A DNA stretch of 64,000 nt from Escherichia phage EC100. Under the pieces are notes generated by a model. It made no database searches and was not told where the DNA came from. It saw only the letters and a program-made list of their open reading frames with translations. The stretch lies in the sequence record NC_105587.1; one strand, given 5' to 3'. A program made the translations under genes and the position numbers. This document shows, piece after piece, positions 1,090 to 21,922 of this stretch (the stretch's first letter is position 1; each line of letters starts with the position of its first letter).

Positions 1090-1118
1090 ATTATACTAAA
1101 TTAGAGAGCTTTAAGCAA
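1090..1118 (-). promoter_or_regulatory. sigma70-type promoter, TTGCTT-17-TATAAT
   Basis: -35 rc of 1113-1118, -10 rc of 1090-1095. Confidence 0.55.
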
Positions 1119-1138
1119 GAAGATTTTTAATTTATTTA

Positions 1139-1615
1139 TCACATCTCAGCCATTTCAGCTTCAGTAATAACTGTGTTACACAAAGCATCTACAGCTTCAT
1201 TACCACTAATACCAGAATGTCCTTTAACCTTAATAAAGGTAGGATTAGTATTATGAAAGTTGATATACTGCTGTGTTAATTTAAATGCTTCCTGCCAAAG
1301 TTCTAGATTAAGAGGAACTTCACCATCTGCTTTCTTCCAGCCTTTTCTTTGCCAAGAAAACATCCAACTTTCCATACCATTTTTGCAATAAGCAGAGTCA
1401 GTATAGATAATAATTGGTCTATTATCTTTTTTAACGGACCAACGTAGAGCTTCTACAATAGCCGTGAGTTCCATCTCATTATTTGTAGTTTTAGGACTAT
1501 ACCCAGATTTAGAACCTAAACGATCGTCGTTATCATCATAGACAATAAAACCCCAAGCACCTAAACCCGGATTGCCTTTACATGCACCATCTGTGTAAAT
1601 GTGGAAAACCGACAT
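1139..1615 (-). CDS. rnh: ribonuclease H (RNase HI family)
   Basis: 158 aa; YTDGAC(K)GNPG, TNN(E)MEL, YTDS and KGH motifs of RNase HI. Confidence 0.85.
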   Translation of the reverse strand: MSVFHIYTDGACKGNPGLGAWGFIVYDDNDDRLGSKSGYSPKTTNNEMELTAIVEALRWSVKKDNRPIIIYTDSAYCKNGMESWMFSWQRKGWKKADGEVPLNLELWQEAFKLTQQYINFHNTNPTFIKVKGHSGISGNEAVDALCNTVITEAEMAEM

Positions 1616-1815
1616 TATTTTTCACCTTCTGTTATCTCTTTAGTTTTTGACTGGGTAGGAGACTTGGGTTTTATAGCCTCTAACTCTCTATCCAGAAATT
1701 CCTCTATTGCTCTATCTACAAAATAATCATATGGTAAATGATAATATTCTGATAGAGTAAGAAGTTTGAGTTCTTGCTTTTCTGTTAAATAAACTTTCTT
1801 TCTAAAGAGTCCCAT
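1615..1815 (-). CDS. hypothetical protein
   Basis: 66-aa ORF, start overlaps rnh; cassette promoter upstream. Confidence 0.45.
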   Translation of the reverse strand: MGLFRKKVYLTEKQELKLLTLSEYYHLPYDYFVDRAIEEFLDRELEAIKPKSPTQSKTKEITEGEK

Positions 1816-1841
1816 ATGTGTATCTCCAATTTATAAAATAT

Positions 1842-1870
1842 ATTATATTTAAATTTCACTAAATAAGCAA
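1842..1870 (-). promoter_or_regulatory. sigma70-type promoter, TTGCTT-17-TATAAT
   Basis: -35 rc of 1865-1870, -10 rc of 1842-1847. Confidence 0.55.
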
Positions 1871-1879
1871 ATGAAATTT

Positions 1880-1903
1880 AAATATAATAGCCCCGAAGGG
1901 CTA
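1880..1903 (-). terminator. rho-independent terminator after thyA
   Basis: TAGCCC-cgaa-GGGCTA hairpin followed by a T-rich tract on the minus strand. Confidence 0.5.
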
Positions 1904-1909
1904 TTTAAG

Positions 1910-2749
1910 TTAAGAGGACATTTTAGCTTTAAGAGCTGGATGAGGATCGTACCCCTCTAAATGGAATGACCAAGCTGCCGTATTATTTTCTAGTAAGTCG
2001 TAAAGATCTACAAACTCTGGCATTACTAGAGTTGGTAAAGAACGAGGTTTACGTTTTACCTGTTCTTCTACCTGTTCCATATGGTCATTATAGATATGAG
2101 TATCACCACCACTAAAGATAAGATAACGAGGTTTTAATCCTGTCAGTTTTGCTAATATATGTGTTAATAAAGCATAACTAGCAATATTGAAAGGTAAACC
2201 GAGGAAACAATCTACAGAACGTTGTGTCCATTTAAGGTCTAGGTATCCATCGTTACTTACATAGCATTGGAAGCCGTAGTGACAGGGTGGTAATGCCATC
2301 TTATCCAGTTCAGCAACGTTCCATGCAGAAACTAGATGTCTGCGGCCATGAGGATTATTCTTGAGTCCCTCAATAAGTTCTAGAATCTGATCTCGCCCAC
2401 CAAAGTTACGCCACTGTTTGCCATATACTGGTCCTAGATTACCCTTATCATACCCCATACTTATAGCTTGGTCTTCATAATTTGGAGTCCAGATGGTCCA
2501 CTGCCCTTCGTCACGACCAAATGTGAATACACGTAGATCATGAAGATTTGTGGAACCAGACAAGAACCATAAAAGTTCTCCTACTACTGATTTCCAGGCC
2601 AGGCGTTTGGTAGTTACAGCTGGGAACCCTTCACGTAGGTCGAACTTAGCATAGGAATCAAAAATTGAAACTGTGCCTGTTCCTGTACGGTCATTACGGG
2701 GTTCACCTAGTAAAATTACATCTGTCAAAATTTTTAAATATTGTTGCAT
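1910..2749 (-). CDS. thyA: thymidylate synthase
   Basis: 279 aa; ThyA-like N-terminus (RNDRTGTGT), active-site region and C-terminus. Confidence 0.9.
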   Translation of the reverse strand: MQQYLKILTDVILLGEPRNDRTGTGTVSIFDSYAKFDLREGFPAVTTKRLAWKSVVGELLWFLSGSTNLHDLRVFTFGRDEGQWTIWTPNYEDQAISMGYDKGNLGPVYGKQWRNFGGRDQILELIEGLKNNPHGRRHLVSAWNVAELDKMALPPCHYGFQCYVSNDGYLDLKWTQRSVDCFLGLPFNIASYALLTHILAKLTGLKPRYLIFSGGDTHIYNDHMEQVEEQVKRKPRSLPTLVMPEFVDLYDLLENNTAAWSFHLEGYDPHPALKAKMSS

Positions 2750-3282
2750 TAATAAGTAACCAATTCCTGTACAAATCGCAGGCTGTTATCACTGTTTGCG
2801 CCAACTGCATAGACTAATCGGGTGGATTCATAATTATAATCCAGTATCATACTATCTAGGTGTATATCTGCCTCTAGCTTCTGTTCGCTAAAGATTGTAG
2901 ATACAAAAGCACTTTCTATATGCCCATGTTGGTACATTTCTAGAAGAAGATTAGCTCCGCCTAGAACTACTGTTTGCTGATCTTTTAGAAAAGTAGGTAA
3001 TGTATCACCTATCATTGATATGGGAGTGTAAATATCATGTGTAATATCGTCTGGCAGTGGACGATCAGCACGAATAAATAGGTCAGAAGCTCCAATCATA
3101 CGTTCCCTAACGGCGTATGGAAGAGCTAAATAAGTACCTGCCCCAATAATAATATTATCAGGATTTAGTACATCTAATTGTGAATAAAAAGCATCTAGTT
3201 CTTCTTTAAAAGAACCCCAGGGAAGCTTACCTCGGAGGCCGAACTCCCCATTCGGCCCAACTGCATATATTGCTGTAATCAT
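2749..3282 (-). CDS. frd: dihydrofolate reductase
   Basis: 177 aa; DHFR-like N-terminus (IYAV...GxxGxLPW); sits between thyA and nrdB. Confidence 0.75.
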   Translation of the reverse strand: MITAIYAVGPNGEFGLRGKLPWGSFKEELDAFYSQLDVLNPDNIIIGAGTYLALPYAVRERMIGASDLFIRADRPLPDDITHDIYTPISMIGDTLPTFLKDQQTVVLGGANLLLEMYQHGHIESAFVSTIFSEQKLEADIHLDSMILDYNYESTRLVYAVGANSDNSLRFVQELVTY

Positions 3283-4424
3283 AGGAAATCTCCAAATTCA
3301 TTGCCCAGATCTTTCAGAGTATCAGTAGAGGTCTCAGTTACCTGACCTACACGGTAAGCTGCACCAATCTGGATTTCTTGTGGAGCAGGCTGTAGAGAAG
3401 TAGTATCCAACCAGTTCATGATCCACGGAATAGGGTTTTTGGTGATTACTGGTAAGTGACTAGGCCATTCTACACCAATGTGCATAAATGCGTTACGTCC
3501 CACAAAGTACAAGTATTCTTCTAGAAGTTCTGCATTCAAACCAATCAGACTACGACCTTTGAAGATGAAATGACCCCATTCAATTTCAGTTTTCAGAGTT
3601 TTCAGGAGCTGTGCTGGTGCTTTAGCCACTGCTTCATCTACCAGATCTTTGTCAAACTGCTGGAACATAATCTGGATGATTGTTTTAGACATCTGAGTAT
3701 GTAGGGCTTCATCTTTAGCAATCAACTGCAGATTTTTAGCAATACCTTGCAGAATATCGTTCTCTGCTAACGCAAAGGTACATGCAAAGGATGCGTAGAA
3801 CTGCATTGCTTCTAGACCGTAGATTGCAAAATAAGCGTCTAATAACTTAGCCTGAGTTTCACGTTTAACTTCAGGAAACTCTGTTTCTGGGTAAGTATTA
3901 TCACCACGATGATCGCGTACTGCGATGAAATACTGACCTAACTGGTACAATTCATCGAACAGTTCAACAGAATCAGCGATACGTGCGAATGCTTCTTGGT
4001 TTTTAGTTACAGAATCAATAAATTCTGCCGGATCAGTCAGCACATTACGGATAATATTGCTATACGCACGACTATGCAGGTCTTCAAAATAGCTCCACTG
4101 CTTGAGCATACCTTCCAATTCTGGACGGCTTACAAGCGGCATAATAGCTGCTTCAGGAGCACGACTGATAAAGGAATCTGTTTGAGTCTGCCATGCTAAG
4201 TTCAGGAGTGTGATTTCCTGGATTTCACGTGGGAGATTGGGCCATTGTTTCTTATCTGCTTCCAGACTGATTTCAGTTTCAGTCCAAAATTGAGAGCGTT
4301 GCAGAAGTGCCAGACGTTCTAGTTCTGGATGTGCTACACGTACATAATCTGCGATACCTAGAGAATCGCCCAGGAAAAGATCAGCGTTAGTATGATCCCA
4401 ATTCAGGTTTAGTAAAGTAGTCAT
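3279..4424 (-). CDS. nrdB: ribonucleotide reductase class Ia beta subunit
   Basis: 381 aa; ferritin-like di-iron RNR small-subunit pattern; GAGGA SD. Confidence 0.9.
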   Translation of the reverse strand: MTTLLNLNWDHTNADLFLGDSLGIADYVRVAHPELERLALLQRSQFWTETEISLEADKKQWPNLPREIQEITLLNLAWQTQTDSFISRAPEAAIMPLVSRPELEGMLKQWSYFEDLHSRAYSNIIRNVLTDPAEFIDSVTKNQEAFARIADSVELFDELYQLGQYFIAVRDHRGDNTYPETEFPEVKRETQAKLLDAYFAIYGLEAMQFYASFACTFALAENDILQGIAKNLQLIAKDEALHTQMSKTIIQIMFQQFDKDLVDEAVAKAPAQLLKTLKTEIEWGHFIFKGRSLIGLNAELLEEYLYFVGRNAFMHIGVEWPSHLPVITKNPIPWIMNWLDTTSLQPAPQEIQIGAAYRVGQVTETSTDTLKDLGNEFGDFL

Positions 4425-10245: not shown

Positions 10246-10274
10246 TTGCTTTCAGCTAAAAATTTATGTATAAT
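10246..10274 (+). promoter_or_regulatory. cassette promoter, TTGCTT-17-TATAAT
   Basis: Followed by the conserved leader ATAGATTTATAAATTTGAGAGGAG and ATG at 10303. Confidence 0.6.
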
Positions 10275-18415: not shown

Positions 18416-18712
18416 ATGACTAAAGCTGAAATTATTGCACAGTGCGAAAAATTTGGTGAGTTTTATCTTCATTACGAGAAACTTCGTCAGAAAGGAACCA
18501 CGTACCTTCAGGGTACAATGGAATTTGATCCAGCCCAAGATAAATATCTGGCTGAGCGTATTAAACGTGAACGTATTCGTAAAGCGAAAGATGATGAAAT
18601 CCTTGTCTTCTCTCGTACTAATGATAGCTTCCGTTTTATTCCTGTCGAGAAAGTTCGTCGTGTGACTAGCCTCCAATCAGAGTTAGATCGTGCTTCTCCA
18701 GTAGGCCGATAA
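18416..18712 (+). CDS. hypothetical protein
   Basis: 98-aa ORF with AAGGAA SD. Confidence 0.5.
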   Translation: MTKAEIIAQCEKFGEFYLHYEKLRQKGTTYLQGTMEFDPAQDKYLAERIKRERIRKAKDDEILVFSRTNDSFRFIPVEKVRRVTSLQSELDRASPVGR

Positions 18713-18721
18713 GAAAACAAT

Positions 18722-18745
18722 TAGCCCCTATATGGGGCTTTTTGT
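18722..18745 (+). terminator. rho-independent terminator
   Basis: AGCCCC-tata-GGGGCT hairpin followed by TTTTTGTG. Confidence 0.65.
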
Positions 18746-18762
18746 GTATTTGGGATATGTAA

Positions 18763-19071
18763 ATGAGCGAACAGGTAAATCAAAACTATGAAGGACACGT
18801 TGATGACCAGTCCATCATACTTTGGGAGAAGGAGGGAGAACAAGTAAGATTAACAGTATCTGAATTTCGTGGGAATCTATACATGGGTATTCGTTACTGG
18901 CTTCTTGATATTAATGATGAATGGTTTCCAACGAAATCTGGCTTCTCTTTTCCTTACACCCTAGAAACAACATCACAGCTTTTCTATGCGTTTACACAGA
19001 TTCTCAGCGAATCTGAGGTTTTACATGAAGTACAGAAACGAGCTGAAGAACTCAAAGCCAAGAATGCCTAG
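18763..19071 (+). CDS. hypothetical protein
   Basis: 102-aa ORF between two terminators. Confidence 0.45.
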   Translation: MSEQVNQNYEGHVDDQSIILWEKEGEQVRLTVSEFRGNLYMGIRYWLLDINDEWFPTKSGFSFPYTLETTSQLFYAFTQILSESEVLHEVQKRAEELKAKNA

Positions 19072-19088
19072 TTCTTGGCTTTTTCTTT
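19057..19088 (+). terminator. rho-independent terminator
   Basis: GCCAAGAA / TTCTTGGC 8-bp stem followed by TTTTTCTTT; the stop codon lies in the loop. Confidence 0.65.
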
Positions 19089-19098
19089 ATAAATGTAT

Positions 19099-19127
19099 TT
19101 GCTTTCAACTCAGTTTTGATATATAAT
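19099..19127 (+). promoter_or_regulatory. cassette promoter, TTGCTT-17-TATAAT, for ligase subunit A
   Basis: -35 19099-19104, -10 19122-19127. Confidence 0.6.
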
Positions 19128-19158
19128 ATTTATATAAATTAATGAGAGATATAAATAA

Positions 19159-20130
19159 ATGACCAATGTAAAAGAATTTATTAAACGCTGTCAAGAAGCA
19201 TATTATCAAGGCATGTCTTTAATCTCTGATGAAGAATATGATCGCCTGGTAAAACGCTTCCCGTTAGAGGAAGAGATCGGGCCTAAGGGTGATATTCCAC
19301 ACCTATATCGTATGTATTCTTTACAGAAAGTTTATTATAACCGTGGGGATAAACCACCATTTAATCCTTTAGGTCAGGTAGAAACTGATAAGTTAGATGG
19401 TTGTGCAATTTCTCTGCTATATATTAACGGTGAATTTGTTCAAGCATTAACCCGTGGTAATGGTATTCTGGGAAATGATGTAACAAGCAACGTAAGATTG
19501 CTGAACATTCCTAAAAAGATTTCCCAAAAAGTACCTACTCAAATCACTGGTGAAGTTCTAATTACAAAAGAAGTAGAAAATAAACGTAACTTTGCCTCTG
19601 GTGCTATTAACCTCAAAGATAGTGATGCTTTCGTACAACGCATTGGAGAAGGCGGTTTAATCTTTGTTGCTTACGGTATCCAATGTTCTGCTGAATCTGT
19701 AGGTATTACAGAAGCATATTTAAAAGATATGCTTTGGCTAGAGAAGGAGAACTTCTTAACAGTTGTTAATGTGCGTTCCTTTTTTAAATGGATTCCTACG
19801 GACGGTAAAGTTGTTCGTATTAATGACAATAACAAATTCTTCCGTGAAGGCTGGACTAATAAATTCCCTCGTGGAGCATTCGCCATTAAAGAGGATGAAG
19901 AAGGCGAAATTACAACTCTTACTAAAGTTGAATGGCAGGTAGGGGCTTCTGGTAAAGTAACTCCAGTTGGTTATTTCGAACCGGTAATTATTGATGATGC
20001 TACAATTGTTAAAGCGACTCTTAATAACGTTGATTATATTAACTCTCTTGATCTAGAGATCGGTTGCCAGATTCGAGTGATTCGTGCTGGTGGTGTAATC
20101 CCGTGCATAGTAGAGCGAGTATACGATTAA
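19159..20130 (+). CDS. lig: NAD-dependent DNA ligase, subunit A (adenylation and OB domains)
   Basis: 323 aa; KxDG adenylation motif (KLDGCA) and LigA-type OB-fold segment (WQVGASGKVTPV...RAGGVIP). Confidence 0.8.
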   Translation: MTNVKEFIKRCQEAYYQGMSLISDEEYDRLVKRFPLEEEIGPKGDIPHLYRMYSLQKVYYNRGDKPPFNPLGQVETDKLDGCAISLLYINGEFVQALTRGNGILGNDVTSNVRLLNIPKKISQKVPTQITGEVLITKEVENKRNFASGAINLKDSDAFVQRIGEGGLIFVAYGIQCSAESVGITEAYLKDMLWLEKENFLTVVNVRSFFKWIPTDGKVVRINDNNKFFREGWTNKFPRGAFAIKEDEEGEITTLTKVEWQVGASGKVTPVGYFEPVIIDDATIVKATLNNVDYINSLDLEIGCQIRVIRAGGVIPCIVERVYD

Positions 20131-20180
20131 TACATAACCCTTTGCTACCCATCTACCATATCGGAATTATAAAGTGGTTA

Positions 20181-20209
20181 TTGACATTTTCGCCGCTTAG
20201 GTATATACT
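20181..20209 (+). promoter_or_regulatory. sigma70 promoter, TTGACA-17-TATACT, inside the ligase spacer
   Basis: Consensus -35 with near-consensus -10. Confidence 0.5.
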
Positions 20210-20274
20210 ATTATCATTCAGTTGAGGGATAGAAAGTTATGGCGAGGGTAAGCAAAGTTAGTTAAAATTGTAGT

Positions 20275-20302
20275 TGCTAAATGCTTAAATACTTGCTATA
20301 AT
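20275..20302 (+). promoter_or_regulatory. cassette promoter, TTGCTA-17-TATAAT, for ligase subunit B
   Basis: -35 20275-20280, -10 20297-20302. Confidence 0.55.
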
Positions 20303-20332
20303 ATTTATATAAATTGATAAGGAAGAAATTTG

Positions 20333-21112
20333 ATGAAAATCGAAATTCCAACACAATGTCCCTCTTGTGGTTCTAAGCTAGATCTTGTCAACGGACAATT
20401 ATTCTGTCGTAATAAGTCCAACTGTCCAGCGCAATCAAGTAAGTTAATTGAGAACTTCTGTTCAAAAATGAAGTTAAAGGGCTTTGGCCCAAAAACTATT
20501 GAGAAGCTGGAGCTGACGAAGATTTCAGAACTATTTTACCTAACCGAAGAAGATTTGGTTAGAGCCGTGGGTAGCAAGGTTGCCGCTAAGTTAATTAGCG
20601 AATTAAATACTAAAGTTCGCGGAGACATTGACTTTGGTTCAGTTCTCGGTTCTTTAGGAATCCCTCTAATTGGAGAGGTTGCAGCAAAGAAATTGTCCCA
20701 AAATTGCACCAGTTTTCAAGATGTGAAGGCTGACGGCAAGGCTGGAGAAAACTATAAAGCCTGGCTAAATTCCCCACAAGGCAAGGATGTTATCGAATTA
20801 CCGTGGAAATTCACAACTGGTATTAAAGGTGCTAAAGCTGAGGTCATCATTACTGATGGTCTAGTAGCCCAGCCAAATGGAATCGCGGTGTGTATTACCG
20901 GGTCTTTGCAAGATTTTGCAAATCGAACGGATGCAACAAACTATTTAGAAGGTCTAGGATATACGGTTAAGAAATCCGTTACCAAAGACGTCAAATACCT
21001 AATCTGTGAGGATGAATCTAAGCGTTCTTCCTCATCTTATAAGAAAGCCGAAACGAATGGGATAGAAATCCTGTCGATTAAAGAACTATTGGAGAAAAAT
21101 AATAATGTCTAA
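20333..21112 (+). CDS. lig: NAD-dependent DNA ligase, subunit B (Zn finger, HhH, BRCT-like)
   Basis: C4 zinc finger CPSCGSKLD...CRNKSNCPAQ at the N-terminus, then HhH-like GFGPKT; ATG at 20333 (ORF track starts at TTG 20330). Confidence 0.75.
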   Translation: MKIEIPTQCPSCGSKLDLVNGQLFCRNKSNCPAQSSKLIENFCSKMKLKGFGPKTIEKLELTKISELFYLTEEDLVRAVGSKVAAKLISELNTKVRGDIDFGSVLGSLGIPLIGEVAAKKLSQNCTSFQDVKADGKAGENYKAWLNSPQGKDVIELPWKFTTGIKGAKAEVIITDGLVAQPNGIAVCITGSLQDFANRTDATNYLEGLGYTVKKSVTKDVKYLICEDESKRSSSSYKKAETNGIEILSIKELLEKNNNV

Positions 21113-21872
21113 ACTGAACTGGAACGTAGAAGGTGTAACCGAGTCTCTGAAAGCAAAAGCCACTGCTCTGGGTGTTGCTGTAATCTCTCAAGAACAAGTA
21201 GCGGCTATCGCTGCTGAACTGGCTGCTGAAACTGGCAAAGACGTTACCGCTCGCTCTGTTGGCTCTAAGCTGCGTAAAGAAGGTTTCGAAGTACAGAAAG
21301 CTAACGAAGTACAGAAATCCCCGTGGACTCCTGAGCAGGAAGCTGAACTGGTTGATTTCCTGAACGCTCATGCTGGTCAGTATACCTATGCTGAAATCGC
21401 TGCTGCTGTAGCTGGTGGTCAGTTCGGTGCTAAGCAGGTACAGGGTAAGATCCTGAGTCTGGAAATGACCGCTTCTGTTAAACCAACTGAAAAAGCTGCT
21501 GCTGTTCGTTCCTTCACTCCGGATGAAGAAACTGACTTTGTTAATCAGGTTGTTGCTGGAGCTACTATTGAAGCTATCGCTGCTCACTTCGGTCGTAATA
21601 TCAAACAGATCCGTGGTAAAGCTCTGAGTCTGCTTCGTGAAGGTCGTATCGCCGCTATGCCGGTACAGGAAACTTCAAGTGCTAAAACTCGTGAAGATCT
21701 GTTAGAAGGTCTGGATCTGGCTAACATGACCGTTGCTGAGATCGCTGAGAAAACTGGTAAGTCTGAGCGCGGTGTTAAATCTATGCTGTCTCGTCGTGGT
21801 CTGGTTGCTAAGGACTATGATGGTGCCGCTAAGCGTGCTAAACTGGATGCAAAAGCTGCGGCTGCTGAATAA
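21105..21872 (+). CDS. hypothetical protein with four HTH-like repeats
   Basis: 255 aa; four ~35-aa repeats of pattern xxE(I/V)AAxx...(K/R)x(V/I)xxKxLSL; Ala-rich; codon bias like highly expressed genes. Confidence 0.6.
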   Translation: MSKLNWNVEGVTESLKAKATALGVAVISQEQVAAIAAELAAETGKDVTARSVGSKLRKEGFEVQKANEVQKSPWTPEQEAELVDFLNAHAGQYTYAEIAAAVAGGQFGAKQVQGKILSLEMTASVKPTEKAAAVRSFTPDEETDFVNQVVAGATIEAIAAHFGRNIKQIRGKALSLLREGRIAAMPVQETSSAKTREDLLEGLDLANMTVAEIAEKTGKSERGVKSMLSRRGLVAKDYDGAAKRAKLDAKAAAAE

Positions 21873-21888
21873 TCTGGTAAATTAAACC

Positions 21889-21922
21889 TAAGGGGAGGGG
21901 GCTATGCTCCTTCCCCTTTTTG
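21889..21922 (+). terminator. rho-independent terminator
   Basis: AAGGGGAGGG / CCTTCCCCTT stem followed by TTTGCATTT. Confidence 0.55.

Follow-up and report, generated by a model that had tools for sequence, protein, structure and literature searches.

A two-gene DNA ligase in a T5-like Escherichia phage: a predicted heterodimer whose break carries a conserved tandem-promoter module

The DNA ligase of T5-like phages is divided between two genes, and the same arrangement is found in a stretch of 64,000 nucleotides (nt) from Escherichia phage EC100 (sequence record NC_105587.1), which is called here the window. Its ligA and ligB genes very probably specify a two-subunit, NAD-dependent ligase of the T5 type, in which subunit A would be the adenylation half and subunit B the DNA-binding half, the two assembling non-covalently at a nick. 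By megablast against phage records, the 3.2 kb around the genes (18700-21900) are 100% identical to Escherichia phages EC122, EC105, EC104 and EC142 and 97.9% identical at the nucleotide level to bacteriophage T5, with 517 matching records in all. By these matches the locus is the ligA/ligB pair of a T5-like phage (Tequintavirus), already known and not new. Indeed, the annotation of a split ligase in T5 goes back to its genome papers of 2004-2005, and the enzyme was cited as such in 2006; the two-gene enzyme is known from the literature (PMC1684257), where ligA and ligB are also given as ligase subunits (PMC3632103). What is mildly new here, namely a family-wide tandem-promoter module at the split and an insertion hotspot 5' of this module, amounts to modest refinements; these comparative additions describe no new phenomenon and carry little weight as a discovery.

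The domain content of the two open reading frames (ORFs) carries much of the argument. A first-pass annotation, made from the letters of the window without database searches, had read them as adenylation and OB domains followed by zinc-finger, helix-hairpin-helix (HhH) and BRCT-like domains, and this order is borne out by the ORF list, Pfam, the tiling of TIGR00575 and alignment with Escherichia coli LigA. Subunit A matches the Pfam models DNA_ligase_aden (8e-24) and DNA_ligase_OB (3.3e-22; OB at residues 252-321), and its OB region aligns with residues 284-390 of 2OWO. Does the downstream ORF carry ligase domains as well? Pfam, PDB and TIGR00575 all indicate that it does. Subunit B matches BRCT (9.3e-08) and, weakly, HhH; it aligns with residues 402-530 of E. 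coli LigA and 400-652 of the T. filiformis ligase, and its AlphaFold model, with a predicted local distance difference test (pLDDT) score of 82, matches the PDB structures 9hu3_B and 2owo_A (probability 1.00 for 2owo_A). The zinc-finger cysteines C9, C12, C25 and C31 of subunit B are invariant in 33 diverse homologues. As for TIGR00575, the NCBIfam equivalog of LigA (EC 6.5.1.2), the profile is tiled by both halves, A ending at profile position 378 and B covering 388-651; the scores are 175.7 bits (A) and 108.8 bits (B) against a cut-off of 444, so that no one polypeptide reaches it. Because there are two ORFs, each under this cut-off, the locus is a split variant of the LigA family and not a canonical member.

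The first pass had proposed an alignment with bacterial LigA to define the domain boundaries. The reference used for this purpose was ligA of E. coli K-12, taken from the genome record, and its product was aligned with the concatenated A and B subunits of the window and of Providencia phage vB_PreS_PR1 (PR1). The concatenation is colinear with E. coli LigA throughout: subunit A spans E. coli residues 1-398, and the junction, between D398 and T399, sits in the linker that joins the OB fold to the zinc finger, where no residue is gained or missing. Motif I of subunit A (K78-L-D-G) aligns with K115-L-D-G of E. coli (K78 = K115, D80 = D117, G81 = G118), and further conserved positions of the nucleotidyltransferase (NTase) domain, with motifs III, IV and V represented, are R99 = R136, E132 = E173, R143 = R200, D215 = D285 and K244 = K314 (window = E. 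coli). In E. coli LigA these aligned catalytic residues are functionally important according to the mutational literature. In domain Ia, Y15, D24, Y27 and D28 are kept (E. coli Y22, D32, Y35 and D36), and H23 is replaced by Y16, as it is in PR1. The E. coli residues Y22, H23, D32, Y35 and D36 bind nicotinamide mononucleotide (NMN) and specify the use of NAD+; the cofactor of the phage enzyme would likewise be NAD+.

Can two such halves form one enzyme? For an orthologue the answer is structural. In a PDB sequence search, subunit A matched chain A of 9hu3 with E=2.6e-103 and subunit B matched chain B, named 'DNA ligase subunit B', with E=7.5e-81; the aligned parts of chains A and B of 9hu3 and 9i5i match PR1_116 and PR1_117 of phage PR1. 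The entry 9hu3, released on 2026-01-14, is titled 'PR1 phage heterodimeric DNA ligase in complex with 21-mer nicked DNA containing phage nick sequence', and by this title and the chain composition the assembly of the halves in trans is shown structurally for the PR1 pair. The first-pass presumption that the two halves assemble in trans gains support from this orthologue, by analogy for the pair of the window. A literature search for a paper describing the PR1 structure (9hu3/9i5i) or a heterodimeric or split DNA ligase found none. A second line of evidence comes from LigN: when truncated at the equivalent point, and so deprived of the zinc finger, HhH and BRCT domains, it adenylates and cannot ligate (PMC1684257); therefore, domains of the type found in subunit B are needed for ligation.

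Another way to obtain one enzyme from two genes would be to regenerate a single polypeptide, through a split intein that trans-splices, a self-splicing intron or translational bypass of the spacer. Phages often have genes broken up by introns, inteins and homing endonucleases, and one Klebsiella relative has a T5orf172-type endonuclease between the halves, which speaks for this idea; however, the last residue of A and the first of B align with neighbouring positions of E. coli LigA, and this lack of any residue added or missing at the junction excludes intein halves. An intron was rejected too, since an Rfam scan of 19900-20500 at E<=1 gave no match, and so was read-through or bypass translation of the spacer, which has stops in all frames and is filled by two conserved predicted promoters, a Shine-Dalgarno sequence and the ATG of ligB. 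These observations agree with the first-pass statement that the spacer holds no endonuclease or intron-like ORF. Moreover, 9hu3 contains two separate chains. The endonuclease itself was seen in one relative only (Klebsiella phage vB_Kpn24-P3) and lies 5' of the promoter module; for these reasons it is a secondary arrival and not the cause of the split. Taken together, the regeneration of one polypeptide has hardly any probability left, and the two-subunit enzyme is the reading retained.

A divided gene may also be a product of sequencing or assembly error, or of a recent pseudogenising mutation, and here the comparison with relatives is decisive. Concatenated A and B were searched by tblastn against all phage records, and 43 two-piece hits were sampled. 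Every sampled hit is in two pieces, from 99% down to 47.5% identity, across Tequintavirus, Epseptimavirus, Klebsiella phages, Providencia phage PR1 and Vibrio phages; fused, single-piece matches are confined to unrelated phages with 29% identity or less. To the first-pass question whether relatives have a fused gene, the reply is that no fused form occurs in the T5 family, either among the 43 sampled two-piece hits or among the best 120 homologues of either half. The latter were drawn from a search of a database of 5.8 billion proteins: those of subunit A (46-99% identity) measure 310-337 amino acids (aa), except for one partial protein of 240 aa, and those of subunit B (50-99% identity) measure 190-263 aa, all but three shorter or partial ones falling at 247-263 aa. 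In T5, Klebsiella, PR1 and Vibrio phages alike, A ends and B begins at homologous residues, the break being at the same point in every relative sampled. Both halves are under purifying selection, with ratios of nonsynonymous to synonymous substitution rates (dN/dS) of 0.02-0.12 for ligA and 0.09-0.13 for ligB in unsaturated Nei-Gojobori comparisons.

There is one record that an error would explain, that of phage EPS7 (NC_010583, an older record; stretch 1272-2253), in which ligB is annotated as 390 nt only and the tblastn match falls into three pieces, which suggests that the annotation reflects frameshift errors in that record. For the split in general, the same break in hundreds of independently sequenced phages of several genera and dN/dS far below 1 in both halves together exclude an artefact or a pseudogene, so that we would give this explanation next to no chance; the spacer, in addition, is predicted to be a conserved functional promoter module. 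As a separate observation, the NAD-dependent ligase of the jumbo Serratia phage 2050HW (stretch 1106-3090) is annotated as three consecutive coding sequences of 65, 59 and 535 aa; its annotated breaks lie near the N-terminus, unlike the T5-type split, and may be genuine or derive from frameshift errors.

A more serious rival keeps both genes functional and separates their tasks: A would suffice by itself as a minimal ligase, and B would be a separate DNA-binding or BRCT scaffold, made in excess, which binds nicks or recruits the replisome. Such independence could account for the two strong predicted promoters of ligB and for its co-transcription with D5, helicase and primase rather than with ligA only, and it would sit comfortably with the Vibrio phages, where one to three annotated genes separate ligA and ligB. 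Against it stand the orthologous PR1 pair, whose solved structure is a heterodimer bound to nicked DNA, and the inability of LigN to ligate once the zinc finger, HhH and BRCT domains are removed. The two genes also always co-occur in the sampled relatives and diverge at equal rates: the amino acid identity is 73% for each half against the Klebsiella phage pair and 56% for each against the PR1 pair, as expected of a single functional unit. Independent halves are thus very unlikely in our judgement, though less so than an artefact or a regenerated polypeptide, and a joint enzyme of A and B remains the preferred interpretation.

Several points nevertheless weigh against this interpretation. In subunit B, HhH scores just under the Pfam gathering cut-off, and the zinc-finger model of Pfam has no match at E<=0.01. 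In subunit A, E. coli K290 is replaced by R220, a conservative change, and R208 by N151, while R277 falls in an alignment gap; K290, R208 and R277 are essential in E. coli LigA. PR1 has the same changes at K290 and R208, and for this reason they are features of the lineage, the activity of the enzyme in the window being a predicted one. The heterodimer, too, is transferred to the window by analogy from a PR1 orthologue of about 56% identity. Lastly, the scan for terminators detected none after ligA; because of this, transcripts from the ligA promoter may read through into ligB, and the operon boundary that is proposed below may be only partial.

The features of the locus, together with the DNA that relatives carry between the two halves, are collected in Table 1.

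Table 1. Features of the ligase locus in the window and insertions between the halves in relatives (positions given as 'stretch' refer to the stretch taken from the relative)
Feature	Position	Strand	Remarks
Rho-independent terminator, ending the upstream unit (PC4-like gene)	19054..19082	+	12-pair stem and T run; annotated in T5 record AY587007
Predicted ligA promoter, TTGCTT-17-TATAAT	19099..19127	+	Read from the sequence; equals T5P35, 'putative promoter' of AY692264 and AY587007
ligA, subunit A	19159..20130	+	323 aa, ATG start; domain Ia, NTase domain and OB fold
Non-coding spacer	20131..20332	+	31% G+C; stops in each of the three frames; same sequence as in T5
Predicted promoter TTGACA-17-TATACT	20181..20209	+	11/12 matches (consensus scan); equals T5 P-K28b / T5P36
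Predicted promoter TTGCTA-17-(TG)TATAAT	20274..20302	+	10/12 matches and extended -10 TG; equals T5 P-K28a / T5P37
Shine-Dalgarno sequence AAGGAAG of ligB	20319..20325	+	7 nt 5' of ATG 20333; kept in relatives
ligB, subunit B	20333..21112	+	259 aa (likely start); Cys4 zinc finger, HhH repeats and BRCT
D5-like DNA-binding protein gene	21105..21872	+	Follows ligB in its transcription unit; T5 annotation; helix-turn-helix and sigma-70 region 4 matches
Salmonella phage bastian, between the halves	stretch 1265-1459		64-aa ORF
Klebsiella phage vB_Kpn24-P3, between the halves	stretch 1956-2654		232-aa zinc-ribbon / T5orf172-type endonuclease
Vibrio phage River4, between the halves	stretch 2469-3672		Three genes, one annotated as DprA-like (Pfam weak, E=0.004)
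Vibrio phage D13, between the halves	stretch 2457-2753		98-aa ORF

One detail concerns the start of ligB. The first pass had given the downstream ORF 260 aa, and this length does follow from the TTG at 20330 in the ORF list; translation most likely begins with the ATG at 20333, which gives 259 aa. The ATG is favoured because spacer alignments show it kept in all relatives and the TTG not, because the Shine-Dalgarno sequence lies 7 nt 5' of it, and because the solved PR1 subunit B begins with MKIQIPT. The distance of 200 base pairs (bp) between the halves, as first stated, agrees with the 199 bp measured from the ligA stop to the TTG; to the ATG it is 202 bp.

The spacer also holds, as predicted from its sequence, two strong sigma-70 promoters, and both of those that the first pass had proposed were recovered: the TTGACA-17-TATACT promoter and a so-called cassette promoter, which corresponds to the repeat TATAATATTTATATAAATT at the promoter of 20274-20302. 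Counting alone would say little in their favour, as the region contains 5 promoter-like matches where 7.6 are expected, a number not above chance. Both spacer promoters, however, coincide with promoters annotated in T5 and are conserved across genera: the T5-annotated boxes map to 20161-20235 and 20254-20328 of the window and contain both scanned hexamer pairs. In the T5 record AY587007 the genes are named dnlj1/dnlj2 and the promoters T5P36/T5P37, and one T5 record labels the latter 'P-K 28b' and 'P-K 28a'. The P-K28a/b names reportedly go back to functional selections of T5 promoters in the 1980s by Gentz and Bujard, an attribution that goes by the GenBank labels, the literature search having returned unrelated papers only. 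The promoter of ligA was unlisted by the consensus scan because its -35 hexamer has only 3/6 consensus matches.

The promoters of the two genes share a further element. The 19-mer TATAATATTTATATAAATT occurs in exact copies at 19122-19140, in the ligA promoter, and at 20297-20315, in the ligB promoter, and consists of the -10 hexamer and an AT-rich downstream box; AY587007 calls it 'repeat b' and annotates it once in either promoter. Allowing up to 3 mismatches, the window has 7 copies against 0.21 expected, on the + strand, the others being at 10269, 13325, 28790, 28891 and 62770. It looks like a module that early promoters have in common. T5, the Klebsiella phages and River4 share another conserved element, the Shine-Dalgarno-like TTGAGGGA, about 12-19 nt 3' of the -10 of the first promoter, and PR1 and D13 have variants of it; this element could be a ribosome-binding site that stabilises the mRNA, or it may belong to the initial transcribed sequence. 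In the window (20222-20265) it is followed by a mini-ORF of 8 codons, with its ATG at 20239 and its stop ending at 20265, which was rejected as a gene since the ORF is unconserved in relatives.

How old is this arrangement? In the spacer alignment, both promoters are conserved from T5 to the Klebsiella phages and to PR1. They extend to Vibrio phages, whose proteins are only about 50% identical: in River4, TTGACA-17-TATACT stands directly 5' of ligB, and D13 has TTGACG-17-TATAAT and TTGCCA-17-(TG)TATAAT 93 bp apart, the spacing that also separates 20181 from 20274 in the window. When the 175 bp 5' of ligB are aligned for six phages, the -35 and -10 elements and a 'TATAATATT' box stand out as invariant blocks, and the tandem-promoter module, about 175 bp long (window 20161-20332; River4 stretch 3660-3830; D13 stretch 2740-2902), is present in 6/6 of these phages. 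From these alignments, the split and its tandem promoters look ancestral to the sampled Demerecviridae. In D13, an annotated ORF of 43 aa (stretch 2786-2917) overlies the promoter module and is probably spurious.

The spacer of some relatives is longer, and the extra DNA is in every case placed after the ligA stop and before the promoter module, so that this stretch is an insertion hotspot in the relatives (Table 1). Candidate insertions in the close relatives oldekolle, ESCO40 and MET_P1_179_112, whose matches are longer, were rejected, the extra DNA being 5' of ligA and not between the halves.

From all of this a mechanism can be proposed. Subunit A would adenylate itself on K78 with NAD+ to give enzyme-AMP, as its conserved Ia and NTase residues suggest, and subunit B, with zinc finger, HhH and BRCT domains, would bind DNA as the other half of a clamp. 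The two would close non-covalently around the nick, like the PR1 heterodimer on DNA and the single-chain LigA of 2OWO, and the transfer of AMP to the 5' phosphate, followed by the sealing of the nick, would be the work of A and B together. In the genome, the break at the OB/zinc-finger linker would coincide with a transcription-unit boundary: ligA would be the last gene of an early unit, with its own promoter after the terminator at 19054-19082, and ligB would open the early unit that follows (ligB-D5-helicase-primase), under the control of P-K28b and P-K28a. These promoters would give the subunits partly independent expression, and ligB might also receive read-through transcripts and be made in excess.

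Why should the split be maintained? One idea is that its position at an ancestral transcription-unit boundary is adaptive and not merely tolerated. Given the conserved tandem-promoter module directly 5' of ligB, B might be made earlier or in excess, and it might also have a second, ligase-independent role. We consider this improbable, if somewhat less so than fully independent halves. If true, the second role of B might be, for example, to bind or protect the single-strand nicks that T5-type genomes carry at programmed places, or to dock to the replisome through BRCT. In any case, the locus offers a natural example of a clamp-forming, multi-domain ligase that is cut at the OB/zinc-finger linker and works as two chains, which is useful for protein engineering, as in the design of split ligases.

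The surroundings of the two genes deserve a few words. The D5-like gene starts within the end of ligB, the two sharing 8 nt (21105-21112, ATGTCTAA), and because of this overlap translational coupling of ligB and D5 is suggested. A gene for a DnaB-like helicase and then a primase gene lie 3' of D5. On the other side, 5' of ligA, a protein of 102 aa (18763-19071) has the PC4/p15 domain of eukaryotic-type transcriptional coactivators that bind single-stranded DNA (PF02229, 8e-08), and a strong terminator comes after it.

Among known systems, the closest is T5 itself. Its LigA and LigB (T5p114/T5p115; dnlj1/dnlj2) are 99.4% (A) and 98.5% (B) identical in amino acid sequence to those of the window, the spacer is identical, P-K28b and P-K28a included, and the neighbours are the same, with the PC4-like gene 5' and D5, the DnaB-like helicase and the primase 3'. 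The differences are a few amino acid substitutions only, the window coming from another, EC122-like isolate.

PR1 stands further away. It has an orthologous two-gene ligase with the break at the same OB/zinc-finger linker position and a tandem-promoter spacer of about 190 bp between the halves. Its solved structure shows a heterodimer bound to nicked DNA. The identity is about 56% per subunit, PR1 A being 10 aa longer and PR1 B 11 aa shorter, and the PR1 record annotates a terminator after ligA where none was detected in the window.

The most distant comparison is with the cellular enzymes of E. coli (2OWO) and T. filiformis (1DGS), with which the domain order Ia-NTase-OB-Zn-HhH-BRCT, the motif I lysine and the Cys4 zinc finger are shared. 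These enzymes are single chains, in contrast to the two polypeptides encoded in the window, and the identity is only about 25%. With 582 aa in total (A+B) against the 671 aa of E. coli LigA, the phage enzyme is about 90 aa shorter; it is trimmed by deletions in Ia and the NTase domain, has a degenerate fourth HhH and carries the K290-to-R and R208-to-N changes, and it keeps the same layout from one end to the other, divided over two chains.

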